64,000 nucleotides of DNA from positions 1 through 64,000 of IMG/VR virus record IMGVR_UViG_2908446538_000001; one strand, given 5' to 3'. Below the pieces are notes generated by a model. It was not told the DNA's origin. It searched no databases and was given only the letters and a program-made list of their open reading frames with translations. The translations under genes were made by a program, and so were the position numbers. Positions within the stretch are counted from its first letter, which is position 1, and every line of letters starts with the position of its first letter. Shown here piece by piece: positions 7,885 to 51,008 of this stretch. The stretch comes from a virus. Lineage: Duplodnaviria; Caudoviricetes.

Positions 7885-7894
7885 GCTGGCTACC

Positions 7895-22900: not shown

Positions 22901-23577
22901 ACTACCAAAACGTCATTTCTGCAGTCGTCCGCGCTCTGGCAGCGGAAACAATCAACAGCGCCGGGGGTTGCAACGTCGAGCCGCGAGTGCAGACCAGTAA
23001 ACTGAAGGGCGAGATCACCGGTAAGGATGCGGCACTGCTCGCCGACTGCATCGTGCACAAGCTGCTGCACGCCCAGCTCAGCCCGCGCCACTGGAACGCA
23101 CTGGTGGCGAAGTACAGCACCCACCGCGGGCGCAAGATCGATTCCATTGGGCGGCTTGTAGCGGTTGTGCCTTCGCCTGCGCCACTGCGCTTCACTCAGC
23201 AGGCGGTTCTGGTCTGGGCTGTGCCGCAACAGTCGAAAGGCATCCAGCGCGCAGTGGTCGAGGTCAAAGCTCCAAAGCATCGGGAAAACAAGGATGAGGG
23301 CCAGTGGGATTGGCGAAACAAAGCGGCCGACGCCGATGCTGCCCGCGCCAACAAGCACGCCAGGTCAGTGGCTGAAACGAAGCCGGGTGAGATGATCGTC
23401 CTCGCCGATTCGAACTACGACATGACGAACTGGGATTCCCAAGGCCTGACGGAGCGCACCTATCAGCGCTGGAATAAGACCATCAAGGGGGCGCTTGAGT
23501 CGATGGTGGACGAGGCTTTGGTCGATGCACAGCACATGCTTGAGGTCGTGGGAGTGCTGGAGTGCGAAGCGGCGTGA
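22897..23577 (+). CDS. Q: Late antiterminator Q-like protein
   Basis: Position after ninG and before promoter/terminator pair. Confidence 0.7.
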   Translation: MNYQNVISAVVRALAAETINSAGGCNVEPRVQTSKLKGEITGKDAALLADCIVHKLLHAQLSPRHWNALVAKYSTHRGRKIDSIGRLVAVVPSPAPLRFTQQAVLVWAVPQQSKGIQRAVVEVKAPKHRENKDEGQWDWRNKAADADAARANKHARSVAETKPGEMIVLADSNYDMTNWDSQGLTERTYQRWNKTIKGALESMVDEALVDAQHMLEVVGVLECEAA

Positions 23578-23596
23578 AATAGTCCCTCAAAAGGGC

Positions 23597-23626
23597 TTGC
23601 AATATCATGTCGCCATGTCGCATTAT
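23597..23626 (+). promoter_or_regulatory. PR'-like late promoter
   Basis: TTGCAA-N18-CATTAT with tandem CATGTCGC repeat in spacer (Q-binding-element-like). Confidence 0.55.
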
Positions 23627-23670
23627 TCACCCATCCTGTCATTCCTGCGTGTGTAGGACTGAGTTACAAG

Positions 23671-23698
23671 AACCCCGGCCATCGTTTCGGGGTTTTTC
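23671..23698 (+). terminator. tR'-like terminator
   Basis: AACCCCG...CGGGGTT + T-tract. Confidence 0.7.
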
Positions 23699-23735
23699 GT
23701 TATTACCCTTCTGTTAAAAAACTTGGTGACCTACT

Positions 23736-24257
23736 ATGGCCTTTCTCATTGATTTGCTAGAGGAAGGCGCCTTGACTGATTTTTCGGACATTCGAAACGC
23801 GTACGCCAAGCATAAAACAGCGCAGGATGCTTACTGGAATGATCTTCAGACGAAGGCATACAGTATTTATCGAGGTTTTGAGCATCACGTTGGCTTGGCT
23901 GGGCAGAAGTTCGCCACGCCAGGTAAGCCAGAAGAAGCCTACTGTCAGGTTGGCGTCATGGAGTCGGGCAAATTCAAGCAGGTACTCGGGCCTTCGTTTA
24001 GCGGTTCCGATTTGCAAGTTGAGTTTGCTATTCGCCTTGTCGTCGATGAGTCACCTATCTCGTTACCGAAAAAGGCTCTGATCATCCAGCTGCGACTTGG
24101 AAAGTCCAAGGATGGCTACTTGGCTCGCCTGAAAACGAGCGAAGGCTGGTTTGATTTCTCTATTTCTTTCGCATTCGCGGAAAGCGAATTGAAGAATCTT
24201 TATGAGGCGATTGCGCTGGATGTGATTGACTCAATGGATGAATCAATTTTCGGTTGA
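23736..24257 (+). CDS. Moron, hypothetical protein
   Basis: AT-richer ORF bracketed by terminators. Confidence 0.65.
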   Translation: MAFLIDLLEEGALTDFSDIRNAYAKHKTAQDAYWNDLQTKAYSIYRGFEHHVGLAGQKFATPGKPEEAYCQVGVMESGKFKQVLGPSFSGSDLQVEFAIRLVVDESPISLPKKALIIQLRLGKSKDGYLARLKTSEGWFDFSISFAFAESELKNLYEAIALDVIDSMDESIFG

Positions 24258-24271
24258 AGCTTCATTCAAAG

Positions 24272-24298
24272 AGCCCGGCCACTGAGCCGGGTTTTTTA
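24272..24298 (+). terminator. Intrinsic terminator
   Basis: GCCCGG-CCACTGAG-CCGGG + T-tract. Confidence 0.75.
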
Positions 24299-24304
24299 TT
24301 GCCT

Positions 24305-24545
24305 GCGTTTCACTGCAGCCAGGGCAGCCTCACGGAAGGCCTGGACGCTGATAAGCCGGTAGTGCAGCGCTACGGAAAAAAACCGGCAGCCCGTGCATCC
24401 TGACCTCACTGTGCTTCCAGGGTGGCGCGAGACACGAACGGCGAGATCGGTGCATTGGGGCGTCGACGCCGGAAAGGTCTTTGGCAGACAGCGCGGAAAG
24501 ACGCGCGCACCTATTCAGGGCCTCAGCATTCGCTGGGGCTTTTCT
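24305..24545 (+). ncRNA. Candidate structured RNA / leader
   Basis: Several stems: CCAGG/CCTGG, GCCGG/CCGGC, GCGCG/CGCGC, final U-tract hairpin; no convincing ORF. Confidence 0.35.
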
Positions 24546-24563
24546 CGTTATGAGGCACAGCAA

Positions 24564-25094
24564 ATGTCCGGCTCTATCCAATCCAGCAACTACGTGCCGG
24601 GCGTTTCCGGCTGGAAAATCGATACTGATACGGGATCCTTCGAGCTTGCATCTGACCGGGTGACAGTTTCAGGGGTTGACCCTAAAGCGGTGTACTGCGG
24701 AAAGTCCCGCAAAGAAAGCCATAAGCCATTCATCGTTGTGGACGGCGTGATCTACATCAGCCAGGCATCCATCGAGGACGCCTCAATCGCTAAGGCCAAA
24801 ATCGGTAACGAATGGTCGGTAAGGATTTGCGTGACGCCAGACGGTGAAAAATACGCAGCCGGCCTTGGTTTGGGCGTCCATCCGGAGTGCCTAGTGCAGC
24901 CTGATCGCTTCGACATCAACGGTCTAGATGCCTCGAAGATCCTTGAGATGCTAGCGGGCAAGATCAGCAAGACCGAATTGTGCCGCCAGGTACTGGCAAA
25001 TAGTGATCAGCTCGGATCCAGCTTCGCCGAACAGGTCAAGGATTTGCTCCGCAAGGAGCTCATGCCTGGCGGTCTGCTGCACCGCTCCCGCTAA
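24564..25094 (+). CDS. Small protein composed of gpJ-like (DUF1983-region) blocks
   Basis: Four segments resemble segments of this phage's J protein; GAGG RBS. Confidence 0.7.
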   Translation: MSGSIQSSNYVPGVSGWKIDTDTGSFELASDRVTVSGVDPKAVYCGKSRKESHKPFIVVDGVIYISQASIEDASIAKAKIGNEWSVRICVTPDGEKYAAGLGLGVHPECLVQPDRFDINGLDASKILEMLAGKISKTELCRQVLANSDQLGSSFAEQVKDLLRKELMPGGLLHRSR

Positions 25095-25129
25095 TCCATT
25101 CCTTCACTCCCTATCGAGCAGGTAAAAAT

Positions 25130-25324
25130 ATGAGCAAGGAGGACGTGGAAAGAAAAGTCATTGTCCTTGTTCCTTCTGGCGAATTTGATCCACGATCGCT
25201 GAGAGCAATGCTCTTAACTACCCAGGGTGAATTCAAAGACACCTTCGTTAAAGTCCATGACAAGGGCGCCTTGTTTCAGGAACTCAAGCCCGAGCACGGC
25301 CTGATAGGTTCTTCCGTTGGCTGA
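25130..25324 (+). CDS. Possible small ORF overlapping protease gene antisense
   Basis: RBS-like CAGGT; 111-nt convergent overlap makes it doubtful. Confidence 0.3.
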   Translation: MSKEDVERKVIVLVPSGEFDPRSLRAMLLTTQGEFKDTFVKVHDKGALFQELKPEHGLIGSSVG

Positions 25325-25669
25325 GAGCGGGGTTGACACGAAGCTGGCTGCATAATGCTCTGAGTGTCCGTCGATTGAAAAAATCGAAGGCCTCTCCTGT
25401 GAGGCGAGAGTCCCCGTACCGCCCATCACGTTTATCGTTGCTGCACGGTGATAGCTAAAGGCGTTAGCCAGGCCTTCATCCATGTAAAAGCGGTCTGCAC
25501 CTGTATCTATCAACGCGTAAACGATGACGGGTGTCGAGCCCGCAGCGGGGCTGTGAAAGTTTTCGGGCGCAGCTGGCTGCATATTTATCGCGATGACCGG
25601 AGAGCCGCCCGGAGTGTCGCTGACTAATCCGGCATCAGACATGAATTGAATCTTGATCTTTGTAGCCAT
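25214..25669 (-). CDS. Retropepsin-like (clan AA) aspartic protease, moron
   Basis: ALIDTGAD catalytic motif, VMGGTG flap, VLGLEFL C-terminal motif. Confidence 0.8.
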   Translation of the reverse strand: MATKIKIQFMSDAGLVSDTPGGSPVIAINMQPAAPENFHSPAAGSTPVIVYALIDTGADRFYMDEGLANAFSYHRAATINVMGGTGTLASQERPSIFSIDGHSEHYAASFVSTPLSANGRTYQAVLGLEFLKQGALVMDFNEGVFEFTLGS

Positions 25670-25723
25670 GCTAGCCGTCCATCGTTTTGCTATAGGGGCA
25701 ATGACGATAGCACGGAGCCATAT

Positions 25724-25748
25724 GCCCTCCACTGAGCGGGCTTTTTAT
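25724..25748 (+). terminator. Intrinsic terminator-like hairpin
   Basis: GCCC-TCCACTGAGC-GGGC + T-tract. Confidence 0.55.
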
Positions 25749-25792
25749 TCCTGCGCTCCCAGACCAGGGAGAACAACAAATACGGAGCAACG

Positions 25793-26164
25793 ATGGATCC
25801 TACTGACCTCGGCCCGGGCACAGCTACCTGGCTGGGCGGTAGCGCCACCGTGGTGCTGGGTGGCTTGCTTTGGCTGCGCCGGTTCCTCTCCAAGGATGCG
25901 ACTGACCGGGCAATGGATAGCGCCGATATCGGCACGCTGAAGCGGCTGAACGAACTGCTGAACCAAGAGCGCGCCGCCCGCAAAGAAGCCGAGTCCCGCG
26001 CCGATCAGTTCGCCAAGGAGCGCAACGACCTTGCCGCCGCAGTAGGCCGCATGGAAGGCAAGATCGAGGCCCTGACTAGTCAGGTCGCCCAACTTACTGA
26101 CCGCGTGACGCAGCAGAGCGACGAGATCACTCGCCTGCGTACCAAGCTGGGAGGTATCGCCTGA
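25793..26164 (+). CDS. Putative holin-position protein (1 TM + coiled coil)
   Basis: N-terminal TM; position before terS. Confidence 0.5.
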   Translation: MDPTDLGPGTATWLGGSATVVLGGLLWLRRFLSKDATDRAMDSADIGTLKRLNELLNQERAARKEAESRADQFAKERNDLAAAVGRMEGKIEALTSQVAQLTDRVTQQSDEITRLRTKLGGIA

Positions 26165-26481: not shown

Positions 26482-26538
26482 GCCGCGCCACGTTTTCGAA
26501 TGCGCCAAATCGTGGCGCGCAATCATGAGGAATCACCC

Positions 26539-26769
26539 ATGGATAACCAGCACAAGAAAATCACCGGCTACCGCGACCTGAGCCAGTCCGAGATCGACGG
26601 CATGAATTCCATCAAGGCGCTGGAAGCTGACACCGGCGAACTGTTCAAGCAGATCGGCCAGATTGAAGGCGTTGACCCGCGCCTGCTGGCTCTGGCCAAG
26701 ACCAACCTGCAACAGGGCTTCATGTGGTTCGTGCGCTCTATCGCCAAGCCAGCCGATCCATTCAGCTGA
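26539..26769 (+). CDS. acb2: Acb2-like anti-CBASS cyclic-nucleotide sponge
   Basis: MDNQHKKITGYRDLSQSEIDGMNSIK...LALAKTNLQQGFMWFVRSIAKP matches recalled Acb2 N- and C-terminal motifs. Confidence 0.8.
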   Translation: MDNQHKKITGYRDLSQSEIDGMNSIKALEADTGELFKQIGQIEGVDPRLLALAKTNLQQGFMWFVRSIAKPADPFS

Positions 26770-35466: not shown

Positions 35467-36119
35467 CGAACAAATACGCGAGTATGAACGGCAGCTTTGC
35501 CGAGAACATCCGTGACTTCGCCGAACGGGCGAAAGACGGTATCGACGCAACCATTCGCGAGATTGTGATTGAGATCGGCAGCAGCGTTATCCTCAAGTCG
35601 CCAGTCGGCAATCCTGAAATCTGGGCAGCGAACGTCGTTCACCGACAGGCGAACAAGCGAGCCGCCGATGACTACGACTTCAAGGTTTCGGTGCGCAACA
35701 CGATCATCAACCTCAACGAATCGAACTTCACAAAGGCCGGCAAGCTGCGAAAGGGCGTGAAGTACGCCAAGCCCCTGACCAAGACCGAGCGCGACCAGAA
35801 CTTCAACGTGAACGGTTTGGTTGCAGGCAAGGGCTACGTCGGCGGGCGGTTTCGCGGGAACTGGCAGTTTTCGATTGATACGCCGGCCGAGGGAGTGCTT
35901 GACCAGATCGATGTCAGCGGTAACGTCAGCATCGCCGTGCTCAAGGCGCAGGTTCAATCCCTGACAGCAGGGCAAACGGCCTACATCGTGAATAACCTGC
36001 CCTACGGAATCCCGCTTGAGTATGGGCATAGCAAGCAAGCGCCTCACGGGATGATTCGGGTCACGTTGTCTCAGTTCCAGAAAACTGTCGATGACGCCAT
36101 CAGGAATAACCAAGTATGA
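35463..36119 (+). CDS. HK97 gp10-like neck protein
   Basis: GRFRGNW, NNLPYGIPLEYGHSKQAP.GM. Confidence 0.8.
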   Translation: MTNKYASMNGSFAENIRDFAERAKDGIDATIREIVIEIGSSVILKSPVGNPEIWAANVVHRQANKRAADDYDFKVSVRNTIINLNESNFTKAGKLRKGVKYAKPLTKTERDQNFNVNGLVAGKGYVGGRFRGNWQFSIDTPAEGVLDQIDVSGNVSIAVLKAQVQSLTAGQTAYIVNNLPYGIPLEYGHSKQAPHGMIRVTLSQFQKTVDDAIRNNQV

Positions 36120-36535
36120 GCCACGCCATCATCGCGTCGATCTACGAGGCCAAGTTGCTTGCCTGGAGCAAGGCGCGGGCAGAACCCATCAAGGTCGTGT
36201 TCGAAAACACTCAGTACGATCCGGCGGATGCCGAGACCTATCTGCGGGCGTTCATGCTCCCAGGCGACACCGCGAGCAGCACGCTCGCTGGCGACCACCG
36301 CGCTTTCATCGGCGTCTACCAAGTCAGCATTGTGGCTCCGGCGAACACCGGGAAGACAAAGACGAACCCACTGGTAGCTGAGCTGACCGCGCTGTTTCCG
36401 CTGTACGCGAGAGACACGAAGGCAGGCCTCACCGTCGTTACGATGTCGCCAGTTGACCCCGGCCCAGGCATCCCCGATCCACCCACATTTACCGTGTCGG
36501 TGTCGTTCGAATACCGAGCGGACATCGCCACCTGA
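36116..36535 (+). CDS. Tail terminator (DUF4128-like)
   Basis: FIGVYQVSIVAP; position before tail tube. Confidence 0.75.
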   Translation: MSHAIIASIYEAKLLAWSKARAEPIKVVFENTQYDPADAETYLRAFMLPGDTASSTLAGDHRAFIGVYQVSIVAPANTGKTKTNPLVAELTALFPLYARDTKAGLTVVTMSPVDPGPGIPDPPTFTVSVSFEYRADIAT

Positions 36536-36607
36536 ATAAGCCCGCTGGGCAAACCCCGAAACCCGCCTCTGTGCGGGTTTTGTCATTTATGAAAAGAGGA
36601 AACACCC

Positions 36608-37255
36608 ATGCAAATGCCCAACGGCGCCACCCTTGAGATCGCGTCAATCTACGGCACGCCGATCCCATTCACCGCCCTGACCAACGCCAATCCAGCCGTC
36701 GCAACGGCTGCGGCGCACGGTCTGGCCGAGGGCGACATCATTGCCGTGAATTCTGGCTGGACCCGCCTCGATGGTCGCGGCGTTCGAGTTGGGACTATTG
36801 CCAGCGGCACGTTCGCGCTGGAGAACATCAATACGACCAGCATCCAGCAGTATCCCGCGGGCTCGGGGATTGGTTCCGTTCGCGAGGTGACAGCCTTCAC
36901 CGAGATCTCGCAGATTACTGAGATGAATTCCAGTGGTGGTGATCAGCAGTTCCTGACCTTCGGCTTCCTGGCCGACGATGATGATCGCCAGATGCCGACC
37001 ACAAAAAACCCGATCACGCTGACCTTCACGGTCGCTGATGATCCTTCCAAGCCTTACGTGGCGGTGTGTGAAGCTGCTGACGACGACAAGCAGGCTCGTT
37101 TGCTTCGCCTGAACCTGCCGGGCGGCAGCAGCATCATCTACAACGGCTATGTGTCGATCACGTCGACCCCGACCATGTCCCGCAACAACCTGATGACCCG
37201 TGTGATCAGCCTGGCGCTGACCGGTCGCCCAGCCCGTTACGCGGCTGCGGTGTAA
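36608..37255 (+). CDS. Tail tube protein
   Basis: Position; lambda-type tube motifs. Confidence 0.8.
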   Translation: MQMPNGATLEIASIYGTPIPFTALTNANPAVATAAAHGLAEGDIIAVNSGWTRLDGRGVRVGTIASGTFALENINTTSIQQYPAGSGIGSVREVTAFTEISQITEMNSSGGDQQFLTFGFLADDDDRQMPTTKNPITLTFTVADDPSKPYVAVCEAADDDKQARLLRLNLPGGSSIIYNGYVSITSTPTMSRNNLMTRVISLALTGRPARYAAAV

Positions 37256-37258
37256 CCC

Positions 37259-37639
37259 ATGGCCAAGTTCAAGTTGATCCAGAAACCGACCTTCAAGGCA
37301 CCGGTGATGATCCAGCGCGCCGGCTACAACGCCGAAAAGGTGGAGTTCGAGTTTAAGTACTTGGACCGCACTGCGCTCGCCGAGCTGTACACCGGCTGGA
37401 ACGAGCGGCACGACGAACTGGGCAAGCAGGTCGGCGACATGGACCTTAAAGCTTTCACTGCCGCCCAGATCGCCCTGCAAGCCGACCAACTGCTGGATGT
37501 GGTTGTCGGCTGGGATATCGAAGAGGAATTCACGCCTGAAAACGTGCGCATCCTCGTTAATTCGATCAACTCGGCGCCGAAGGCAGTGTTGAACGCTTAC
37601 GCCGAAGCCTTCAGCGAAGCACGCCTGGGAAACTCCTAA
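37259..37639 (+). CDS. Tail assembly chaperone G
   Basis: QLLDVVVGWDIEEEFTPEN; slippery site at end. Confidence 0.8.
   Translation: MAKFKLIQKPTFKAPVMIQRAGYNAEKVEFEFKYLDRTALAELYTGWNERHDELGKQVGDMDLKAFTAAQIALQADQLLDVVVGWDIEEEFTPENVRILVNSINSAPKAVLNAYAEAFSEARLGNS
37627..37633 (+). promoter_or_regulatory. -1 programmed frameshift heptamer G GGA AAC
   Basis: Correct phase; -1 frame is open into the 37687-37965 ORF. Confidence 0.8.
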
Positions 37640-37686
37640 GCGCCTCCCGCGCGCTGTATGAGCCAGGGCCGTCAGATGCAGATCTG

Positions 37687-37965
37687 ATGGCCTTCGGTTT
37701 ATCGCGCCAGGACATCCCCGACAAGGAAGTCGGCATCTGGCCAGACAACTGGGACGCCTTCAAAGTCTTCGAGGCCATGAGTACCCAGTGGCGCACGGGC
37801 GCGTGCGGCGCAACAGGCATGGACTACAGCGTTCTCTCCGGTGTGATTCGGATGTGTGGCGTACCGATCAGCCAGCGACAAACCATTTTCAGCGACTTCC
37901 GGCGGATGGAGACCGAAGCCCTGCAGGTGATGGCGGAGCAGAGGGAAAGTGCGAGGGGAGCCTGA
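37687..37965 (+). CDS. Tail chaperone T segment (DUF1799-like), expressed as G-T fusion
   Basis: WPDNWDAFKVF..M.TQWR...GMDY motif; in frame with -1 shift. Confidence 0.8.
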   Translation: MAFGLSRQDIPDKEVGIWPDNWDAFKVFEAMSTQWRTGACGATGMDYSVLSGVIRMCGVPISQRQTIFSDFRRMETEALQVMAEQRESARGA

Positions 37966-38006: not shown

Positions 38007-38231
38007 ATGGCCGCAGGAGTGGGTATGCAAAAGAGTGATCAGTTCAGCCCGGTAATCGCTTGGCGCTCAATGCTGGGGAGCAAGCCCAATCGCGAGCCAG
38101 TCGAAGTTGATGTCCAAGATGGGCGCGCCGAGTACTTGCTCAGCGGCCCGTATAATCTTTCTGAGGGCGGCAAAATCGAAGTTGTTGGTGGCAAGCTTCT
38201 TTTTACAGGCAGCAGAACGAAGATCAGTTGA
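38007..38231 (+). CDS. Small hypothetical protein
   Basis: 74 aa between T and immI-like block. Confidence 0.4.
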   Translation: MAAGVGMQKSDQFSPVIAWRSMLGSKPNREPVEVDVQDGRAEYLLSGPYNLSEGGKIEVVGGKLLFTGSRTKIS

Positions 38232-38478
38232 TGTGATGGAAGACCCTGGCGAACGTGCCGTCACCTGAGTAGTTCAGATCACCAGCCAAGATCAGCGCAT
38301 ACCCTGGCCCAACGTTTTTGAGTGATTCGGAGATAGTCTCAAAATCAAACTCCGACAAAAAGGTAATGACGCCACACCCCACTTCAAAACCTTTGTGGGC
38401 GAATAATTCCACTACAGGAATGTATTCATTTTTCGACGTGACGATGATGTAGGGGAAGATGGTTTGTGCTTCGCTCAC
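38224..38478 (-). CDS. Small hypothetical protein
   Basis: 84 aa, GGAGG RBS. Confidence 0.55.
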   Translation of the reverse strand: MSEAQTIFPYIIVTSKNEYIPVVELFAHKGFEVGCGVITFLSEFDFETISESLKNVGPGYALILAGDLNYSGDGTFARVFHHIN

Positions 38479-38558
38479 ATTGACCTCCAGGTCATAAACG
38501 CGCCGATATTGGCGCTATCCCAGTCCTTGGGCTTGCAGGCGTAGGACTGGGAAATCCT

Positions 38559-38942
38559 TTAATCGAGCATTTCCCGGCGCATCATGGCCTGGAACTTCTC
38601 CCGCTCGATTCTGCCGAGAGCCTCCGCCACTTCGAGTATCTGAGGGCCGAAACTGTCTTCATCTTCGGTGCCGGCGGCTGCCTTGGCTTTGCTCATGAGC
38701 AAATCGAGGGCGCGGCTGTGCTTGGCGCTTTCCATGCTGAGCCTGGCTATTTCCCTGTCCAGTTCATCAGCCTTTGCCACCTCAACCTCGTCAAGGGTTC
38801 GAGGGGAGAAGCTTTCCTCAAGGCGAGCTGTGATTTCAGCGTTGAGGCTGCGCTTGGTCTTTCGAGCAGACTCTTCAAGCTTCTCCCGGAGTGGTAGCGG
38901 CATCCGCAGCGGGTAGGCGGTTGGCTGAATCTTCTCGCTCAT
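38559..38942 (-). CDS. Arc/Mnt-family ribbon-helix-helix repressor
   Basis: YPLRMPLPLREKLEESARKTKRSLNAEITARLE. Confidence 0.85.
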   Translation of the reverse strand: MSEKIQPTAYPLRMPLPLREKLEESARKTKRSLNAEITARLEESFSPRTLDEVEVAKADELDREIARLSMESAKHSRALDLLMSKAKAAAGTEDEDSFGPQILEVAEALGRIEREKFQAMMRREMLD

Positions 38943-38978
38943 CTTTGTCCTAGGGGTGAAGGTGTATATGGAGTATGC

Positions 38979-39039
38979 AAATAGATTTGTTTTGAGATCA
39001 AAGAATCTATTTGACGCCACTGATATCTTGATATCTAAT
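38979..39039. promoter_or_regulatory. Divergent Arc/Mnt control region with promoter
   Basis: IR AAATAGATT...AATCTATTT; TTGACG-N17-TCTAAT on + strand. Confidence 0.6.
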
Positions 39040-39064
39040 AGATTCACACCACAAGGAGCCAGCC

Positions 39065-39241
39065 ATGGCAGCGAAGACACCAATCAGTCCATACCCACTG
39101 CGCCTGCGGCCGCACGTGAAAGAGGCTGCGAAAGCGCAGTCGGAGCTCTACCGACGCAGCCTGAATACCGAAATTGAAATGCTTATTGAGGAGGGGCTGA
39201 AATGGCGGGAGATGCAGCAGAGCAGGCAGGCGGTAGCCTGA
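39065..39241 (+). CDS. Arc-family RHH protein (58 aa, below ORF-track cutoff)
   Basis: MAAKTPISPYPLRLRPHVKEAAKAQSELYRRSLNTEIEMLIEEG; AAGGAG RBS. Confidence 0.8.
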   Translation: MAAKTPISPYPLRLRPHVKEAAKAQSELYRRSLNTEIEMLIEEGLKWREMQQSRQAVA

Positions 39242-39309
39242 AACGAAGAAGCCCCGGCGTGCAGGCCAGAGCTTCAGATAACGAAATCAACTTCGGAGAA
39301 GAAAACGTC

Positions 39310-40182: not shown

Positions 40183-40397
40183 ACTTCACACTCAAAGCTG
40201 GCGGTCGCGCTCTGATCCTTTCCCCGGAGCTGCCAAATCTGGTCGGCCGCTCTGGCCAGCTGATTCGCAAGGTCGACGAAAATTGGCTGATGCTGGTCGA
40301 GGGCAAGCGCTACTCGGTCAGCGAGAAAAGTCTGATGCCTCTGGACGGCTTCAATCCTGGCGCTCCAAGCGCAATGTGTGCGGAGGTGGCGGCATGA
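40179..40397 (+). CDS. Small hypothetical protein (SH3-like)
   Basis: 72 aa, coupled. Confidence 0.55.
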   Translation: MNFTLKAGGRALILSPELPNLVGRSGQLIRKVDENWLMLVEGKRYSVSEKSLMPLDGFNPGAPSAMCAEVAA

Positions 40398-40906: not shown

Positions 40907-41001
40907 CCTCCCGCGAACCCGAAGAACCCCGCACATGCGGGGCTTTCGTGTTGCTCCCTTGTTGGTGATAAAGTCCCGCGATATCTCAACGAGGGAACGA
41001 T

Positions 41002-41547: not shown

Positions 41548-44500
41548 ATGAGCACGAACTTCGCCTCGCTGGGCATTTCTGTCGAGTCTTCGCAGGCTGC
41601 AAAGGCTGCTGACGATCTGGACAAGTTGGTTGATTCGGCAGTTGATGCCGAGAAGGCGATTGATGACCTTGGCAAAACTGGCGAAGGATTGGCCAATACC
41701 GGAAAGAAGATCACTCAGGCAGAAAATGAGGTAGCCCAGGGTGTCGAGAAGTCTACGGCCGCGATAGACCGCAAATCTGGTGCAAGCCGCAAAGCAGCCG
41801 ACAGCGCTGTGGCTGAGATCAACGTGATCGCCCAGCTTGATCGGGCCATGACCGGCAATATCACCAGTATGGAATCCCTGATGCAGGCTGAGGGCCTGCT
41901 TGAGCGCGCCAAGAAAGGCGGATTGGTCACGGCTGAGGAGCAGATCAAGTATCAGGAGCAGTTGGGCAAAGCGTTCGACAAAATAGAGAAGGCGGAAGCC
42001 AAGGAAACAGCCCAAAAGCAGCGCCTGATTGACGCAGAAAACCGACAGATTGAGGCGCTGAAACGCACCGTCAATGGAATTGACCCGGTAACCGCAAAGC
42101 TGGCAAAGCTTGAGGCGCAGGAGAAGGCAGCGCACGAAGCGTTCCGTGTTGGAGCAATTGATGTCGAGGCCTACAACGCCGCCCTGGCGAAGGTCGGAAA
42201 AGATCGAGCGGGCGTTACCGAAGTAGGCGGAGCCTTCGACAAGCTGAAGCTCGGCACTCGGCAAGCCCAAGAAAATGTCATGCAGCTCAGCAATGCCATT
42301 CAGTCGGGCGATTGGGGCAGTGGAGCGCGGGCAATTGCGCAGTTAGGCGCCGGCGCAGGCGAGTCGGCGGGGCGAATGATTTCCTTGGCTGCCCCTGTTG
42401 CTCTGGTGACTGCTGCCATCGGCACACTAGCAGCTGCCTACTTGCAGGGCGTTGATAGAGCAGAAAAATTCAACAACGCGCTTATTGTTAGTGGTGGGGC
42501 TGCGGGCAAGACAACTGCGCAGTTAACTGCAATGTCGCTAGCGCTTGGGAAGGGGGGCAACCTCACTCAGGCGTCAGAGGCTCTTCTCGCAGTCGCAAGT
42601 TCTGGAGAACTCACAGGCAGTACTTTTGATTCCGTTGCGCGCGCCGCCACCGAGCTTTCGGTGGCCACAGGGCGGAGCTCTGGGGAAATCGCCAAGCAGA
42701 TGGTCGGCAGTAAGGGGGACGTTGCTGCACTCGCAGCTGAGTACAACCGCCAATACCACTTCATGAGCAGCGAAACTTACTCGCACATCAAGGTTCTGCA
42801 GGAGCAGGGCGATGAAATGGGGGCGTTGGAGCTTCTCACTACTCAGCTTGCCGACTCAATGGCTAAACGGAACAAGGATATTGAGGACTCGGCTCGCGGT
42901 GTCGTCGGTGCGTGGCGCGATGCGAAGAAAGCGTTCAGTGACTACTGGGGGGAGTTTACGAGCCGTGCAGGCGCAGATAAGGATACGTTTACTCTGCAAG
43001 TTAAGCAGGGACAGCTCGAAGACGTTAAGGCCCTGCCTGAAAGCAATCTCCGAACAAAAGCAATTGCGAACCTTGAGCAAGAGATATCGCTCATCCAGCA
43101 GCGTATCGGCGCAAAGCAGAAAGACGCCGAGCAGGATGCCAAGACTGACGAAAAAACTCAGAAAGGCATTGATGCGGAGCGTGACCTTGAAGTTATTCGC
43201 AAGGCTGCCTACACAAACAAGCAAAAGCGAGACAAGGAAGAGGAAAAGTATCTTCAGAAGATCGCTGACCTGCGCGAGGCGAACCCAAAAAGCCCGCTGC
43301 TCGATCAGAAACTGATTGAGCGAGACCTGGACAATATCCGCAACAAGTACAAAGACCCGAAGGCAGCCTCAACCCAAGTCGATCTGACCAGCTTCAACAA
43401 CGCCAAGAACAACCTCTCCGATATAGTCAATGAATACCGGAACGCCCAGAAGGAACTGGAGGCCCAGCAGAAAGCCGGCGTGGTATCGCTCTCGGACTAT
43501 GCGAAGCAGCGTTCGGCACTGATCAATCAGGAAAAGGACGATGTCACCGCGGCGTACCAGGCCGAGATTGATGCACTGGAAGCGGCCAAGGCCAAGAAAG
43601 GCACGACGGCGGCCCAGAGCATCCAGCTCGACCAGAAGATCGCCGATGCTCGCACTGGAATGGTCAAAGCGCAAAAGGACGCCGACAGTCAACTGACGAT
43701 CATCGCCACAAGCGAGAAGGGCCGACTTGAGCAGCTGACGGCCGCCTCAGAGGCGTACGTCAACCAGTTGGAACGCCAGCGGGCCGCACTGGAAGCCGCT
43801 GGCTCCCGCGCAGCAAACGGGCTGGGCCTGGGAGACCGGCAAGCGGCACTGCAAGCGAGCCTCGACGCAACCACGGACAAGTTCAACGACGAGCGGGCCA
43901 AGCTGCTGGATCGCCGCAAGACCGCGCCTGACAAGTACAGCCAGGAAGACTACATGCGCGACCTGGCCAGTCTTGAGGATGCGGAAAGGAAGTACCGCGA
44001 CACTGTGGTCGACAACTACGACAAGATGTCGGAGGCCCAGGGTGATTGGCGTAGCGGGGCCTCATCGGCTTTCCAGAACTATCTGCAGTCTGCCAACGAT
44101 GTGGCTGGCCAGACCAAGAGCCTGTTCACGAATGCTTTTTCCAGCATGGAAGACGCGGTCGCGAATTTTGCTGTAACCGGCAAATTGTCGTTCTCCGATT
44201 TCACCAAATCGATCATCGCCGATATGGCGCGGATCGCGACTCGACAAGCTGCCTCTGGTTTGCTTTCGAGCATCGCCGGAAGTGCGCTTGGGGCGTACTT
44301 CGGTGGCGGTGCGGGTGCTGGCGCTACCAGCTTCGGGTCAGACATTGGTGGTGCAATCACTGCCAATGCCAAGGGCGGTGTGTACGACTCGCCAAGCTTG
44401 TCCAGCTTCAGCAACCAGGTGCACGACAAGCCGCAGATGTTCGCCTTCGCGAAGGGCGCGGGCATCTTCGCCGAAGCCGGGCCGGAGGCGATCATGCCGC

Positions 44501-44766
44501 TGACCAGGACGGCTGGCGGTGAGCTTGGGGTGCGGGCGCTGGGTGGCGGTGGGGGCGGGGCGGGCGGCGGGAATACCGACTCCAAGATGGAGGTCACCAT
44601 CAACATCAATCGAGATGGATCTGGCGATGCGACTGCAGATACAGCAATGGGCCAGAAGCTGGCCCCTCAGTTCCTCGCCATGATCCGAGGTGAGATCGCA
44701 GCGAATGAACGCAGAACGTTGAGCCCCAGCGGGGGCGCAACGTGGAGAGCAATCAACGGGAGATAA
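41548..44766 (+). CDS. Tail tape measure protein
   Basis: 1072 aa helical; lambda-type C-terminal motifs (ANAKGG, AGPEAIMPL). Confidence 0.93.
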   Translation: MSTNFASLGISVESSQAAKAADDLDKLVDSAVDAEKAIDDLGKTGEGLANTGKKITQAENEVAQGVEKSTAAIDRKSGASRKAADSAVAEINVIAQLDRAMTGNITSMESLMQAEGLLERAKKGGLVTAEEQIKYQEQLGKAFDKIEKAEAKETAQKQRLIDAENRQIEALKRTVNGIDPVTAKLAKLEAQEKAAHEAFRVGAIDVEAYNAALAKVGKDRAGVTEVGGAFDKLKLGTRQAQENVMQLSNAIQSGDWGSGARAIAQLGAGAGESAGRMISLAAPVALVTAAIGTLAAAYLQGVDRAEKFNNALIVSGGAAGKTTAQLTAMSLALGKGGNLTQASEALLAVASSGELTGSTFDSVARAATELSVATGRSSGEIAKQMVGSKGDVAALAAEYNRQYHFMSSETYSHIKVLQEQGDEMGALELLTTQLADSMAKRNKDIEDSARGVVGAWRDAKKAFSDYWGEFTSRAGADKDTFTLQVKQGQLEDVKALPESNLRTKAIANLEQEISLIQQRIGAKQKDAEQDAKTDEKTQKGIDAERDLEVIRKAAYTNKQKRDKEEEKYLQKIADLREANPKSPLLDQKLIERDLDNIRNKYKDPKAASTQVDLTSFNNAKNNLSDIVNEYRNAQKELEAQQKAGVVSLSDYAKQRSALINQEKDDVTAAYQAEIDALEAAKAKKGTTAAQSIQLDQKIADARTGMVKAQKDADSQLTIIATSEKGRLEQLTAASEAYVNQLERQRAALEAAGSRAANGLGLGDRQAALQASLDATTDKFNDERAKLLDRRKTAPDKYSQEDYMRDLASLEDAERKYRDTVVDNYDKMSEAQGDWRSGASSAFQNYLQSANDVAGQTKSLFTNAFSSMEDAVANFAVTGKLSFSDFTKSIIADMARIATRQAASGLLSSIAGSALGAYFGGGAGAGATSFGSDIGGAITANAKGGVYDSPSLSSFSNQVHDKPQMFAFAKGAGIFAEAGPEAIMPLTRTAGGELGVRALGGGGGGAGGGNTDSKMEVTININRDGSGDATADTAMGQKLAPQFLAMIRGEIAANERRTLSPSGGATWRAINGR

Positions 44767-44786
44767 GAAGCGGAAATGATTCGCCG

Positions 44787-46158: not shown

Positions 46159-46914
46159 ATGCGCAAACACATCATTGCGGCCATTCAGGCGCATGCGGCG
46201 GCCGAGTACCCGAAGGAGTGCTGTGGGTTGGTGCTGGCCGTGGGCCGGGCGCAGAAGTACTTCCCGTGCCGTAACATCGCAACCGAGCCCAACGAAGAGT
46301 TCCGGCTTGAGCCAGAGGATTACGCCGCGGCGGAAGACCAGGGCCAGGTGATCGGTATCGTGCATTCGCATCCGGACGCCACCAGCAGGCCGTCATCGCG
46401 CGACCTGGCGATGTGCGAGGCTACGGCCTTGCCCTGGCACATTCTGTCATGGCCTGAAGGGGATTTAAGGACGATCACGCCGACGGGCAGCACGCCGCTG
46501 CTCAAGCGCCCGTTCGTACACGGCGCCTGGGACTGCTGGCAGGTCTGCGCGGATTGGTATCAGCGTGAATGGGGGCTCCAGTTTGAAGCTTTCCAGCGCG
46601 CCGATGGCTGGTGGGAGAGTGCAGACAGCACAAGCCTTTATGAATCGAACTACGCCGCCGCCGGATTCGAGCAGGTCGACAGCCCGCGGCGAGGCGACAT
46701 GATCGTAATGGAGGTAGGCCGCACGGCTCACCCGAACCACGCAGGGATCTATCTGGGAACTGACCCGTTGCTTCCCGGTGAAGATTCCGGAGTGTTCGGG
46801 CCTGGTCCGTTCGTACTGCACCACCTGTATGGCCGTCCGTCCGAGGTGTTCGTCTACGGCGGTCCGTGGCTCCAGCGCACCCGCTTAATTCTTCGACACA
46901 AGGAGGCCCGATGA
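46159..46914 (+). CDS. Tail assembly protein K (JAB + NlpC/P60)
   Basis: PKECCG, HSHPD, WDCWQ, HAGIY. Confidence 0.92.
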   Translation: MRKHIIAAIQAHAAAEYPKECCGLVLAVGRAQKYFPCRNIATEPNEEFRLEPEDYAAAEDQGQVIGIVHSHPDATSRPSSRDLAMCEATALPWHILSWPEGDLRTITPTGSTPLLKRPFVHGAWDCWQVCADWYQREWGLQFEAFQRADGWWESADSTSLYESNYAAAGFEQVDSPRRGDMIVMEVGRTAHPNHAGIYLGTDPLLPGEDSGVFGPGPFVLHHLYGRPSEVFVYGGPWLQRTRLILRHKEAR

Positions 46915-47492
46915 GCGCCATCGTTTATTCGCCGATGACCACAATCAAACTGTCCTGCTCACTGGCTCAGAAGTTCGGCCGGCTGCACCGCCGCCAAGTT
47001 TCATCTGGCGACACATGGGAGGTTTTCCGGGCTCTGAAGGCGACTATCCAAGGTTTCGACGAAGAAATTCGGCGCCTTGACCGACTCGGCATGCGATTTG
47101 CCATCTTTCGCAACCGAAAAAATGTCGGTGTCGATGAGTTCGGCATGGGCGGTGCCAGGGAGATACGCATCGTTCCGGTGGTTGAGGGGTCTAAGCGTGC
47201 TGGGCTGCTCCAGACAATCATAGGTGTGGTGCTGATCGCGGCGTCATATTTTACCGGGGGTTCTACTCTGGCTTCTGGCATCGCGCTGACTGCGGGAGGC
47301 GTTATCCAGATGCTCAGCCCTCAAGCCGCAGGCCTCAAGCAAAGCGCCTCTCCGGAAAACATGCCCAGCTATGCATTTGGCTCGGCAAAGAACACCACGG
47401 CGAGCGGCAACCCCGTCCCCATCTGCATCGGTGATCGCCGGTGGGGCGGGGCAATCATCTCGGCATCGATCTATGCCGAGGACAAGACATAA
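46911..47492 (+). CDS. Tail assembly protein I
   Basis: IRIVPVVEGSKRAG, SYAFGS.KNTTASGNPVP. Confidence 0.9.
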   Translation: MSAIVYSPMTTIKLSCSLAQKFGRLHRRQVSSGDTWEVFRALKATIQGFDEEIRRLDRLGMRFAIFRNRKNVGVDEFGMGGAREIRIVPVVEGSKRAGLLQTIIGVVLIAASYFTGGSTLASGIALTAGGVIQMLSPQAAGLKQSASPENMPSYAFGSAKNTTASGNPVPICIGDRRWGGAIISASIYAEDKT

Positions 47493-47549: not shown

Positions 47550-50500
47550 ATGGGCGCAGCACAGAAGCTGGATATACACGGCGCCAAAGGTGGCGAGAGC
47601 AAGCCGAAGTCTCCGGTAGAGTCACCCGACAGCCTGCGCTCGACCAACGTGGCCAAAATCCTGATCGCCGTGGGCGAGGGTGAATTCGACGGAACACCCA
47701 CTGCGCGCGATATCTTCCTCGACAACACCCCAATCCAGGATGCCAGCGGCAACTACAACTTCACCAACGTGAAGTGGGACTGGCGTCCGGGTTCTGTCGA
47801 GCAGACCTACATCCCGGGTATACCATCGGTCGACAACGAGACCTCGCTGAATATAGAGCTGCGTAGCGGAACGCCGTGGGTTCAGTCGCTGACCAACCTG
47901 CAGCTGTCGGCGGCACGTATTCGCCTGGCTACGCCGCGGCTTGCGAGCCAGGACAACGAAGGCAATATTGGTGGTTACAGCATCCAGTACGCGGTCGACG
48001 TGGCCACCGATGGTGGGGCCTATCAGGAGGTATTGGTTGGCGCTATTACAGGCAAAGCCACCACTCGCTACGAAAAGTCCATGCGTATCGATTTGCCGCC
48101 GGCCACCAGTGGATGGCTGATTCGCGTTCGCCGCATTACCCCAAACCAGAACACCGACAAGATTGCAGATAGCCTGTTCATCGCCGGCTACACCCAGGTG
48201 ATCGATGCAAAGCTGCGCTACCCGAACACCGCGCTACTTTTTGTGCAATTCGACGCCGAGCAGTTCACCAAAATCCCGGCGGTCACCGTGAAGTGCAAGG
48301 CCCGCCGCTGGCAGGTGCCGAGCAACTACGACCCGGTGGCCCGCACGTACTCTGGCGCCTGGGATGGCACCATGAAGGAGGCGTGGACGAATAACCCCGC
48401 CTGGGTCACTTACGGTATCTGCACTCAGGACCGCTTCGGCCTTGGTAAGCGCATAAAACCGTGGATGGTCGACAAGTGGGAGCTGTACCGCATCGCGCAG
48501 TACTGCGACCAGTTGGTGTCGAACGGTGCCGACGGCGTTGAGCCGCGTTTCCTGTGCGACATGAACCTGCAGGGCAAAGCCGATGCATGGTCTCTGCTGC
48601 GTGATATCGCCGGCATTTATCGCGGCATGACGTACTGGGCTCAAGGTCAACTGGTCATGCAGGCAGATATGCCGCGCTCGCAAGATATCGACTACGTCTT
48701 TACCCGCTCCAATGTGATCGACGGGAAGATCTCGTACGGCAGCGCCTCGGCGAAAACGCGTTTCACTCGGTGCCTGGTCAGCTATGACAATCCGCTGAAC
48801 AACTACGACACCGACGTCACCGTCTATTCCGACCTGCCGCTGCAGCGCCGTTTGGGCGACAAGCCAACTGAAATCAGTGCCATCGGCTGCACTCGGGCAT
48901 CTGAGGCCCAGCGCCGCGCTAAATGGCTGGTGCTGAGCAACAACCAGGACCGCACCATCAGCTTCAGGACCGGTATGGAAGGCCGTATCCCGCTGCCAGG
49001 GTTCATCATCCCCGTTGCCGACTCGTTGCTGGCTGGTCGGGAGATCGGCGGGCGCATTGCGGCGGCGTCAGGGAAGGTCATTACCCTGGACCGTGACACC
49101 CTGGCCAAGGCGGGTGACCGGTTGGTGGTCAACCTTCCCGGCGGGCGGGCAGAAGGCCGCACCGTGGAAAGCGTGAGCGATCGCAACGTAACCGTGACCA
49201 TTGCTTACAGCGAGGCACCAGCTGCACAGCTTCAGTGGGCAATCGACGCTGACGACCTGGCAATCCCTCTATATAGAGTGATGAGGACTGCACGGACGCC
49301 AGGGGGCGATTACGAAATCAGCGCCTTGCAGTACGAGCCAAGCAAGTTCGCCAGCATCGACACTGGCGCACGCCTCGAAGACCGCCCGATCAGCGTCATA
49401 CCAATCACGGTGGTGCCGCCGCCGGAAAGCGTAACCGTCACGTCGAACGTGTCGATCGACCAGGGCCTGGCCATCAGCACCATGAACATCTCGTGGCCAG
49501 CCGTCACCGGCGCGGTCGCCTACGACGTGGAGTGGCGCAAGGACAGCGGCAACTGGATCAAGGTGCAACGCACCGGCTCCACCAGCCTTGATGTCACCGG
49601 GATTTACGCGGGCGCCTATCTGGCCCGCGTGCGCTCGGTGAGCGCCTTCGAAATCTCGTCGATCTGGAAGAGCTCAAACCTGACCAACTTGGAAGGCAAG
49701 GTTGGCCTGCCGCCGGCGGTGTCTTCCCTGACCACAACCAGCGAATTGTTTGGGGTCGGCATCAAGTGGGGCTTCCCACCTGGTGCAGAGGACACCCAGC
49801 GAACCGAGGTGTGGTATGGGCCTGCAAACGATCTGGGAGCCGCTACCAAGCTGGCCGACCTGGCTTACCCGCAGGCTGAATACCGCATGCAGCAGCTGCA
49901 GGCGGGCGCAACCCTGTTCTTCTGGGCGCGCTTGGTGGACCGTACCGGCAACGTCGGGCCGTTCTATCCGGTTGTCGACGGGGTTATGGGGCAGGCCAGC
50001 TCTGAGGCTGGGCCAATCCTCGATCTGCTCGCCGGCAAGGTCACGAAAACTGAGCTGGGCAAGGATCTTCTGGATGAGCTTGAAGGCCTGCAGGACCAGA
50101 TCGACTCGCTTGATGGTTTGAAGGGCTACGATCCAGAAGCCACCTACCTGAAAGGCCAGATGGTGGTGGAGGGTGGGCGAATCTATCAGGCCTTCGTAGA
50201 TGTTCCGGTAGGCACACCACCGCCGAACGGCGCTTTCTGGCTGGATGTTGGCCAGTCTGTCGAGACTGCGAACGGCCTGGCCCAGCAAGTGGCAACCAAC
50301 AAAGCGGACATCACGGAGCTCGACGGCGTCGTCACGGCCCAGGCCAGCATGACCAACGCATTGCGCGCCTCGGCGCGCGATGACAGTGGCAGCGGTGCGA
50401 AGGCTGATGCACTGAGAGGATACGCCAGCACTGTCGCTATCGTCGAAGAGAGCAAGGTCAGGGCTACCGCCATCGAGGCCGAAGCGACCAAGACAACGAA

Positions 50501-51008
50501 GCTTGAAGCGACTGTTGGACAGAACACTTCTGCCATTCAGCAAACGTCCTCAGCGTTGGCCAACACCAATGGCCGGCTGCAGACATTGTGGTCAGTGAAG
50601 ATGGAGACCACCGCCGGTGGACAGAGGTACGCGGCCTCGTTCGGTCTCGGTCTTCAGGTCGATCCATCTGGTGTGTCGTCACAGTTCGTGGTCAGGGCTG
50701 ACACGTTCATGCTGTTGAACTTGAATAACGGCACGCCGGTGTCACCGTTCTCTGTGTCTGGCGGGCAAACCTTTGTCAGTTCGGCGTTTATTCAGGATGG
50801 CACCATCACCAACGCTAAGATCGGCGAATACATCAGCTCGACCAACTACATCGCTGGCCAGCAGGGCTGGATTCTCCGGAAGGATGGATCGTTCGAAATC
50901 AACGGGATTGTTCCTGGTCAAGGGCGCTCCATGATGACGAATCGCTCTATGCGGTTTTGGGATAACAATAACATGAAGAGAGTGCAGCTAGGAGATCAAA
51001 CCGAATGA
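47550..51008 (+). CDS. Central tail tip / host-specificity protein J
   Basis: 1152 aa; FN3-like and DUF1983-like C-terminal segments. Confidence 0.93.
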   Translation: MGAAQKLDIHGAKGGESKPKSPVESPDSLRSTNVAKILIAVGEGEFDGTPTARDIFLDNTPIQDASGNYNFTNVKWDWRPGSVEQTYIPGIPSVDNETSLNIELRSGTPWVQSLTNLQLSAARIRLATPRLASQDNEGNIGGYSIQYAVDVATDGGAYQEVLVGAITGKATTRYEKSMRIDLPPATSGWLIRVRRITPNQNTDKIADSLFIAGYTQVIDAKLRYPNTALLFVQFDAEQFTKIPAVTVKCKARRWQVPSNYDPVARTYSGAWDGTMKEAWTNNPAWVTYGICTQDRFGLGKRIKPWMVDKWELYRIAQYCDQLVSNGADGVEPRFLCDMNLQGKADAWSLLRDIAGIYRGMTYWAQGQLVMQADMPRSQDIDYVFTRSNVIDGKISYGSASAKTRFTRCLVSYDNPLNNYDTDVTVYSDLPLQRRLGDKPTEISAIGCTRASEAQRRAKWLVLSNNQDRTISFRTGMEGRIPLPGFIIPVADSLLAGREIGGRIAAASGKVITLDRDTLAKAGDRLVVNLPGGRAEGRTVESVSDRNVTVTIAYSEAPAAQLQWAIDADDLAIPLYRVMRTARTPGGDYEISALQYEPSKFASIDTGARLEDRPISVIPITVVPPPESVTVTSNVSIDQGLAISTMNISWPAVTGAVAYDVEWRKDSGNWIKVQRTGSTSLDVTGIYAGAYLARVRSVSAFEISSIWKSSNLTNLEGKVGLPPAVSSLTTTSELFGVGIKWGFPPGAEDTQRTEVWYGPANDLGAATKLADLAYPQAEYRMQQLQAGATLFFWARLVDRTGNVGPFYPVVDGVMGQASSEAGPILDLLAGKVTKTELGKDLLDELEGLQDQIDSLDGLKGYDPEATYLKGQMVVEGGRIYQAFVDVPVGTPPPNGAFWLDVGQSVETANGLAQQVATNKADITELDGVVTAQASMTNALRASARDDSGSGAKADALRGYASTVAIVEESKVRATAIEAEATKTTKLEATVGQNTSAIQQTSSALANTNGRLQTLWSVKMETTAGGQRYAASFGLGLQVDPSGVSSQFVVRADTFMLLNLNNGTPVSPFSVSGGQTFVSSAFIQDGTITNAKIGEYISSTNYIAGQQGWILRKDGSFEINGIVPGQGRSMMTNRSMRFWDNNNMKRVQLGDQTE

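Follow-up and report, generated by a model that had tools for sequence, protein, structure and literature searches.

Gene and reading frame

The DNA analyzed here, called the window below, is the 64,000-nucleotide (nt) stretch from position 1 to 64,000 of the IMG/VR virus record IMGVR_UViG_2908446538_000001 (Duplodnaviria; Caudoviricetes). It holds a lambda-like siphophage, a Pseudomonas prophage, and this report concerns one of its genes, at 24564..25094 on the + strand, whose product of 176 amino acids is termed P0001. We found that P0001 is built from blocks resembling the fiber of the phage's own tail-tip protein J, set in the reverse of their order in J, and that it closes with a segment resembling the end of a tape-measure protein. 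The gene is present as a single copy in its own genome and is a member of the family phrog_18217. The gene is genuine and conserved, and it belongs to the late-strand accessory genes of lambda-like siphophages of Pseudomonas.

The reading frame of P0001 is open in the 5' direction as far as a GTG codon at 24393. The relatives of the protein begin at the methionine of MSGSIQSS or MQSSNY, and a GAGG sequence lies about 9 nt 5' of the P0001 ATG. A hairpin resembling an intrinsic terminator (24271..24299, +; CCCGGC..GCCGGG and then a run of T) follows the upstream phrog_5091 gene and is located 265 nt ahead of the start codon; it was read directly from the sequence and is absent from the list that our consensus scan produced. 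That scan, which covered 23400-26000, returned no promoter-like site and no sigma-70-like promoter ahead of the P0001 open reading frame (ORF). With a terminator-like element upstream and no promoter-like site, P0001 is probably expressed by way of antiterminated late transcription.

Blocks of the J fiber in reversed order

The resident J, or central fiber protein (47550..51008, +; 1152 residues), represents the source type of the four blocks, which we call A to D. It matches PF24801, PF13550, PF09327, phrog_31, and phrog_2589; its match to PF09327 (E = 1e-43) is a single collinear stretch in which residues 995-1127 correspond to positions 1-133 of the 139-position profile. An earlier note on this DNA, made by a model from the letters alone, had claimed that four blocks of P0001 match this J in the opposite order. 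BLASTP comparison of the two proteins confirms the claim: there are four high-scoring segment pairs (HSPs; E = 1e-3 to 6e-5), and their order in J is exactly the inverse of that in P0001. Block A (24576..24647, +; residues 5-28) is similar to J 1095-1117 (E = 1e-3), the lowest conserved layer of the central straight fiber of J, and it holds the family-invariant N-terminal motif QS.NYVPGVSGWK. Block B (24726..24806, +; residues 55-81; PF..DG..YI..A.I.D.SI.KAKIG) is similar to J 1066-1092 (E = 1e-4), and block C (24813..24929, +; residues 84-122; WSV...G.KYAAGLGLG...V.ADRF) to J 1014-1059 (E = 6e-5). Finally, block D (24927..24995, +; residues 122-144) is similar to J 819-841 (E = 1e-4), the helix that starts the fiber below the last fibronectin type III (FNIII) domain.

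The same disorder is evident when P0001 is compared to domain profiles. Its match to Pfam PF09327 (Phage_Tail_Tip; E = 6e-16, 58.9 bits against a cut-off of 22) falls into three separate stretches that are not collinear, the best of which (residues 48-82, profile positions 65-99) lies around block B. This is the sole Pfam match of P0001; those representing the hub and FNIII domains of J (PF13550 and PF24801) are not matched. In homologs, too, segments of the PF09327 profile follow one another along the gene as, for example, 94-125, then 67-95, then 7-40.

The reversal also holds against J proteins of known structure. With the family profile as the query, positions 120-152 align to lambda J (8iyk) 808-840, the latter range being the counterpart of block D (helix 809-840, AHS), and positions 79-119 align to lambda J 858-905, the counterpart of block C; in the F2 pyocin fiber, block C is similar to residues 1079-1118. 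In the solved J fiber 9ze4_N, query positions 124-152, 53-80, and 3-21 correspond to chain residues 124-152, 319-346, and 371-389. Further, the family members of loci L001, L002, L006, and L021 and of phage Aurca01 are likewise reversed with respect to their own cognate J proteins. An apparent A-then-B order in matches to Klebsiella tail proteins was rejected as a mis-extension, as those proteins have the canonical C-B-A order. P0001 is a clean natural case of homologous blocks in wholly reversed order, and it is of interest for both protein evolution and annotation.

A tape-measure-like C-terminus

Over its C-terminal ~45 residues (24957..25091, +; end ..LRKELMPGGLLHRSR), P0001 resembles lambda-type tape-measure proteins at their extreme C-terminus. 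The tape-measure protein of the window (41548..44766, +) has a related ...IRGEI...GGATWRAINGR ending in its own C-terminal 45 residues (44629-44763), and it is homologous to the F2-pyocin tape measure up to the last residue (E = 2.7e-32). With the tape-measure proteins (gpH; PyoF5 579-611), P0001 shares its extreme C-terminus, in which an amphipathic helix leads into ..E-L-x-P-G-G-x-h-[W/H/Y]-R; upstream of this shared end it differs from them throughout and, at 176 residues, has no long helical ruler.

The earlier note had found the LRKELMPGGLL ending reminiscent of tape-measure C-termini, and this impression was borne out. Among 3339 ORFs of at least 80 amino acids from the window and related loci, the motif GG.[LIVMS][WHYF]R occurs within the last 16 residues of 30, namely 26 family members and four tape-measure proteins. 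When the 45 C-terminal residues of 14 family members and of nine tape measures were compared as profiles with hhalign, 37 columns aligned with a probability of 93% (E = 3.2e-7). The family profile also weakly matches residues 583-608 (of 612) of the F2-pyocin tape measure 25vf_5 (E = 0.82). The description of P0001 as a shuffled tail-tip mimic is therefore not only upheld but widened, as the tape-measure C-terminal helix is copied too and the blocks track the resident J (see below).

Structural setting of the copied parts

The counterpart of block D in lambda J, residues 809-840, is the upper helix of a bundle just under the last FNIII domain, and the chain from ~858 (blocks C, B, and A, in that order) forms the central straight fiber toward the receptor-binding domain (PMC11101478). 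The nearest solved relative of the window's J type is the central fiber of the F7 pyocin. In this protein, residues 818-921 constitute a “spine”, 921-1083 a coiled coil that switches to a beta-prism, and 1083-1119 (block C) the prism bottom, after which comes an intertwined beta-helix (PMC12874032). As for the tape measure, its last 33 residues assemble within the tip as a trimeric helix bundle and touch the gpI-type plug protein (PMC12874032; the same is true of lambda, PMC11101478). The window encodes such a gpI-like tail assembly protein (THIP) at 46911..47492 on the + strand (phrog_32, E = 2e-62); in solved tails, this protein is the contact partner of the tape-measure C-terminal helices. 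Read from its C- to its N-terminus, P0001 thus follows the tail axis from the inside of the tip outward: tape-measure end, first fiber helix, and the top, middle, and bottom layers of the fiber.

The similarity to lambda gpJ and the PyoF10 fiber (PF09327; 8iyk, 8xcj, 25vf) is significant for blocks A-D, i.e. for the fiber-starting helix and the straight-fiber layers. P0001 differs from these proteins in its length (176 residues versus about 1150), in its lack of a hub, FNIII domains, and the fold-switching coiled coil, in the reversal of its blocks, in its extra tape-measure-like end, and in being encoded apart from J.

Structure prediction was uninformative for P0001. The AlphaFold2 monomer model has a predicted local distance difference test (pLDDT) score of 53 and is unusable; the ESM Atlas model is equally poor, and its neighbors are from the protein's own family only. 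For a 276-residue member, the model (pLDDT 65) is confident only for an alpha/beta insert at about residues 39-120. A Foldseek search of the PDB with this model gave nothing at E < 0.06, and VIA-align gave a best Z-score of 6.0 among generic alpha/beta matches, so that no fold was assigned.

The phrog_18217 family

P0001 matches phrog_18217, which is catalogued with function unknown, over its full length (E = 1.7e-33; residues 4-175 to profile positions 2-216 of 216). A database search returned 134 relatives of 96-308 residues with E-values down to 1e-67, and the named members are all from Pseudomonas. The gene is thus not the singular oddity as which the earlier note had treated it. Some of the relatives are annotated in their source records as “DUF1983 domain-containing” or “phage tail tip fiber protein”, and others as “host specificity protein J”. 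Although phrog_18217 had been catalogued already, we found no paper in the literature on its permuted composition, on the tape-measure-like end, on the two genomic slots, or on the co-variation with J.

Family members range from 130 to 400 residues in length and were seen almost only in Pseudomonas phages and prophages. Short members (130-190 residues) differ from those of ~280 residues by an insert of ~110 residues after block A, and members of 320-400 residues have an extra N-terminal coiled-coil piece. We rejected the “multi-epitope” idea, in which the insert would be a further tail epitope, given that an insert hidden Markov model (HMM) matches no other tail protein. No member among those compared is fused to a hub or a tape measure, nor were fused longer forms found. 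The termini of the family are invariant at a mean identity of 37-50%: in block A, Q6, P12, G13, G16, W17, and F26; at the end, R163, E165, G169, G170, L172, and R174. G61 and I65 of block B are invariant as well. The middle is a mosaic, and some members have block C swapped for another J-like piece or are missing blocks.

The ORF is intact in about 50 loci. A family member is present in about eight of 200 sampled Pseudomonas species genomes; the sample includes the unpublished genomes G108 and G159, which gave only J-type matches in this tally and no match in the TaiEcA tally described below, and on which none of our claims depends. Isolated phages that have a member are Medea1 (annotated “host specificity protein J”), Aurca01, Cruim01, and PMBT14. 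Every checked record with a family member also encodes a full-length J. In Aurca01 (L081, PP179334), J is annotated as two overlapping “tail fiber” ORFs (5393-8185 and 8124-8729), the second of which holds the C-terminal fiber blocks; the split may represent a frameshift or a sequencing error. Phages of the phiPSA1 type have the J protein without a family member.

Scans of P0001 against Pfam, NCBIfam, and PHROG revealed no tail-fiber chaperone family of the Tfa or gpG type, and NCBIfam gave no matches of any kind. PADLOC-DB 2.0 returned 0 families for P0001 and P0006.

Genomic slots

In the window, the gene order is NinB, NinG, phrog_3412, phrog_5091, P0001, an opposite-strand 172-residue ORF, a hol-like gene, phrog_6065, an Acb2/Tad1-hairpin protein, terS, and terL; phrog_3412 occupies the position of Q-like antiterminators in other loci. 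Further 3' are the head genes, the tail terminator, the major tail gene, the tail chaperones, an Arc/Ant insertion, the tape measure, M/L/K/I-like genes, J, two small ORFs, a fiber fragment, an endolysin, and a spanin.

Family genes recur in two slots, one bounded by the tail terminator and major tail genes, the other by a Q-like regulator and the holin or terminase genes; the window exemplifies the latter. Across ~50 loci, 19 have a tail terminator or neck protein as the 5' neighbor and about 6-10 a Q-like or phrog_3412 protein; on the 3' side, about 20 have a major tail protein and about 10-14 a holin. Whichever slot it occupies, the gene is co-directional with the flanking late genes, and it is on the late strand in every locus. 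The earlier note had stated that the gene is 23 kb from the tail genes. This is correct for the window prophage only; in most relatives the gene is within the tail module.

Close relatives hold the gene in different slots. In locus L001, it lies between orthologs of the window's tail terminator and major tail genes (64% and 87% identical proteins, respectively), with gaps of 16 and 70 bp. In the window, the same slot is empty: a 72-bp gap (36536..36607) separates the tail terminator gene (36116-36535) from the major tail gene (36608-37249). The L001 capsid protein, like its major tail protein, is 87% identical to that of the window, yet the family gene is in a different slot. The family gene is accessory and mobile. 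It may be mentioned here that the pyoF1 gene of F-pyocin clusters, a 95-residue ORF located 5' of the tube gene, is regarded as non-functional (10.1101/2021.02.16.431561). Its position is that of the family's phage slot, and pyoF1 could be a family remnant.

Some neighbors of P0001 in the window deserve comment. A putative ORF, that of 172 residues (25214-25732, -), would break the late strand directly after P0001 and overlaps an equally putative 64-residue + strand ORF (25130-25324). A DTGA motif and a weak match of retropepsin type (PF13975; E = 0.001, below the cut-off) are present in the 172-residue ORF, which has no PHROG or PADLOC match and is not similar to TaiEcA. In other loci of this slot (L018, L034, L036, L041-L043, L046, and L049), an opposite-strand ORF of diverse kind is often found 3' of the family gene; these include unknowns, one HicB-like antitoxin, and a gene of 238-260 residues common to L018 and L046 (84% identity). 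A conserved opposite-strand partner gene in the style of tai/ati was considered and rejected, for the reverse-strand neighbors are unrelated to each other and to 25214-25732. The Acb2/Tad1-hairpin protein is encoded by an 89-residue ORF (26500-26769, +; PF24729, E = 1e-18) that is 1.4 kb 3' of P0001 and just ahead of the terminase genes, and it is likely an anti-CBASS/anti-Thoeris nucleotide sponge. The diversity in this slot suggests that the neighborhood is a cargo hotspot.

Co-variation with the resident J

For 11 phages, each family member was compared to the last 420 residues of each J, and the bits of non-overlapping HSPs were summed. The cognate J was the best in its row for 6/11 pairs. 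After removal of the row and column means, the diagonal had a permutation p-value of 0.00055 (20,000 random pairings), in a test that ignores phylogeny among 11 phages that are related. Because the family gene and J are paralogous, simple co-inheritance would not produce this pattern. Recent gene conversion from J was ruled out, as the window blocks and J are 58-61% identical at the DNA level and their longest shared word is 10 nt. The match between the family and J points to selection for matching or to an old, lineage-specific exchange.

Relationship to tail-assembly interference systems

Tail-assembly interference is a recently recognized layer of bacterial immunity, and the present family bears on how phages without cognate antidotes might escape it. 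Tai proteins occur in phi80, phage-inducible chromosomal islands, and P4-like satellites, and they yield tail-less particles; escape mutations map to the C-terminal part of J and affect a residue considered to matter for oligomerization (PMC11364771). The Tab protein of JBD26 blocks tail assembly and is keyed to the tape measure's C-terminal region, and its antidote, anti-tab, is on the late strand (PMC10884400). The taiEcA gene is 5' of the packaging genes on the opposite strand, and atiEcA, the antidote to it, lies on the Q-dependent strand (PMC11364771). Each of tab and taiEcA has its own promoter and occupies the opposite strand, tab being within a late operon (PMC10884400, PMC11364771). 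Judged from sequence, the family copies exactly the C-terminal regions of J and the tape measure on which Tai and Tab are keyed.

The likeness of the family to these systems resides in the step concerned (initiation at the tail tip), in the target regions, and in similar genomic places, namely a late operon and the stretch 5' of the packaging genes. Like the Ati and anti-Tab antidotes, the family gene is on the late strand, dispensable, and sporadic, and its predicted timing is also theirs. It differs from tai and tab in its strand, and the family has no sequence similarity to TaiEcA or to other ORFs of the phi80 island, with the exception of gp49. Specifically, family HMMs did not match the TaiEcA ORF of phi80 (44365-44979; its assignment as orf63 is by strand and size) at E < 10. 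TaiEcA-like ORFs are present in seven of the 200 sampled Pseudomonas genomes.

The phi80 protein gp49 (orf66; L088, NC_021190 45352-46080) is a distant relative of the B-C-D-tail-end half of the family (hmmsearch E = 7e-6 and 2e-6), although hhalign gave a probability of only 36% for gp49 against the family. Its likeness to the family extends to its ..ECFPGGVIW.. end and to its gene's place on the late strand, just 5' of cos and the terminase genes, in the tai/ati island. In contrast to the family, its N-terminal 100 residues are unrelated (N15 gp59-like), and it has no block A. gp49 is chimeric: its first 81 residues are common to N15 gp59-like proteins of many enterobacterial phages, and its last 120 resemble the Pseudomonas family. 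The phi80 tape measure ends in ..SAGGVLYSRR, and gp49 carries the tape-measure-like motif ..PGGVIW...

Possible functions of P0001

Members of the family probably have their effect at the assembly of the tail tip, either by acting on it or by protecting it. The foregoing raises the possibility, to which we assign a probability of roughly 0.3, that P0001 is a late-expressed structural decoy that protects tail-tip assembly from Tai/Tab-like immunity. The mimic would be made together with the tail proteins and would act in trans. Blockers of the Tai or Tab kind, from the host or a resident prophage, would bind this abundant small protein in place of J or the tape measure, and the few molecules of J and tape measure that nucleate each tail would thereby remain free. 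It is purely our inference that the reversed order and the missing hub may stop the mimic from coming into register with J and from spoiling the tail of its own phage. Sponges and decoys such as Acb2/Tad1 and Ocr resemble this arrangement in concept only, in that a small phage protein made in large amounts captures a component of immunity: Acb2/Tad1-type sponges bind nucleotides, and Ocr mimics DNA. To our knowledge, no decoy that mimics a phage's own structural proteins has been described so far. If the proposal is true, the family would represent a new class of counter-defense in which a virus mimics components of its own virion.

Several observations weigh against such a decoy. Conservation of the N-terminal block and the C-terminal motif exceeds that of the J and tape-measure segments that they would imitate, which suggests that the termini have partners of the family's own. 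A plain HMM of the family C-terminus did not retrieve the cognate tape-measure proteins at E < 10; hence, the resemblance of the ends is real, yet short and diverged. Most members are packed tightly inside the tail operon, as structural genes are, and the conserved alpha/beta insert and coiled-coil extension of longer members are not obviously needed by a pure decoy. With the TaiEcA protein as the query, no TaiEcA-like ORF was found in the window genome; we also found no Tai- or Tab-like gene beside P0001 and no conserved defense gene among the neighbors. AtiEcA and anti-Tab are small unrelated proteins that are reported to bind the defense protein, and neither is a target mimic. Finally, deletion of orf66 from phi80 did not lower the titer, despite the presence of TaiEcA in that phage (PMC11364771).

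The tight packing just mentioned would be natural for an accessory part of the tail tip, i.e. a small trimeric mini-fiber or an internal tip protein in or on the virion, docked via its tape-measure-like C-terminal helix (to the gpI-type plug or the J hub), via its J-like layers, or both. About 20 of the ~50 loci have the gene in the slot flanked by the tail terminator and major tail genes, with the short gaps noted above for L001. The modular, fiber-like build (beta layers, helices, an optional coiled-coil N-extension, and a conserved globular insert), the invariant termini, which resemble attachment sites, the co-variation of the blocks with the resident J, and the trimeric, gpI-contacting bundle of the tape-measure end are all consistent with such a part. 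We nevertheless consider it unlikely. The gene is optional and its position shifts between close relatives; a simple threading of the reversed blocks cannot give the native fiber fold, and the monomer models are poor. The tape-measure site in the tip is already occupied by three tape-measure chains. Further, in the literature on Medea1, Aurca01, Cruim01, and PMBT14 we found neither a virion proteome with a member nor a functional paper that mentions the protein. Much the same evidence of co-variation, and of predicted late expression alongside the tail genes, could fit a non-virion assembly factor, for which the earlier note had proposed the word “chaperone”. Such a protein might be a template or safety pin for trimerization of the J C-terminus or for its metastable pre-ejection form, or it might hold the gpI/J site until the tape measure arrives. 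Indeed, P0001 has exactly the parts found on either side of the fold-switching coiled coil in F-pyocin-type fibers, without the switching segment, and the F7 pyocin fiber requires outside stabilization to retain its coiled coil (PMC12874032). However, many phages with the same J type do not have the gene, so the protein is no general requirement; P0001 has no likeness to known fiber chaperones, PF09327 being its only Pfam match, and the phi80 orf66 deletion had no titer defect. Taken alone, this role seems improbable to us; together, the tail-tip part and the assembly factor are about as probable as the decoy. Were P0001 a tip component or an assembly factor, it would bear on how metastable, fold-switching F-pyocin-type fibers are built and held, and on the engineering of tailocins and host range.

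The earlier note had also proposed a “poison”. As a dominant-negative weapon, the mimic would co-assemble with, or block, the J, gpI, or tape measure of superinfecting phages, co-induced prophages, or F-type tailocins, and tail-less particles would result. Interference of this type is an established strategy aimed at the same regions (PMC11364771, PMC10884400); the window gene is in an accessory island 5' of the packaging genes, like tai in phi80, and Tab is likewise encoded inside a late operon. Here, however, the genetics differ: all loci have the family gene on the late strand, in contrast to tab and taiEcA, each of which is read from its own promoter on the opposite strand, and P0001 has a terminator upstream and no promoter-like site. 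The blocks are most like the phage's own J, so the phage would poison itself, and there is no conserved partner antidote gene. P0001 also has no similarity to TaiEcA and no PADLOC match. We therefore doubt this proposal as well; the late strand, the upstream terminator and lack of a promoter, the likeness to the own J, and the contrast in strand with known blockers fit a self-directed role (decoy or assembly accessory) better than a constitutive poison. It is very unlikely that the gene is debris left by recombination, a functionless patchwork of J pieces retained by chance. The mosaic middle, with block C replaced or blocks absent in some members, would be expected of such debris, but more than 130 homologs have intact frames, the terminal motifs are invariant at 37-50% identity, the A-B-C-D-tail-end order is constant, and the slots are conserved.

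Other features of the window

An immI-like insertion of lower GC content (38007-41490) separates the tail chaperone genes (37262-37944) from the tape measure. It contains an Arc-like repressor (38559-39083, -), the antirepressor Ant (39202-40182), a regulator (40283-40906), and an unknown ORF of 162 residues. Medea1 has a similar Arc/Rha/helix-turn-helix insertion between its K and I genes.

After J, at 51005-52780, there are two small ORFs of low GC content at third codon positions (GC3), of 109 (phrog_7961) and 218 residues (phrog_3370), in the position of the PyoF11/PyoF12 receptor-binding adaptors of F-pyocins. They are followed by a 246-residue ORF that matches only part of tail-fiber families (profiles of 449-700 positions) and is possibly a truncated side fiber. 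Past the lysis genes, near the prophage end, two adjacent ORFs of ~570 residues (56081-59517; low GC3, 0.48) resemble foreign cargo and are possibly a defense system.

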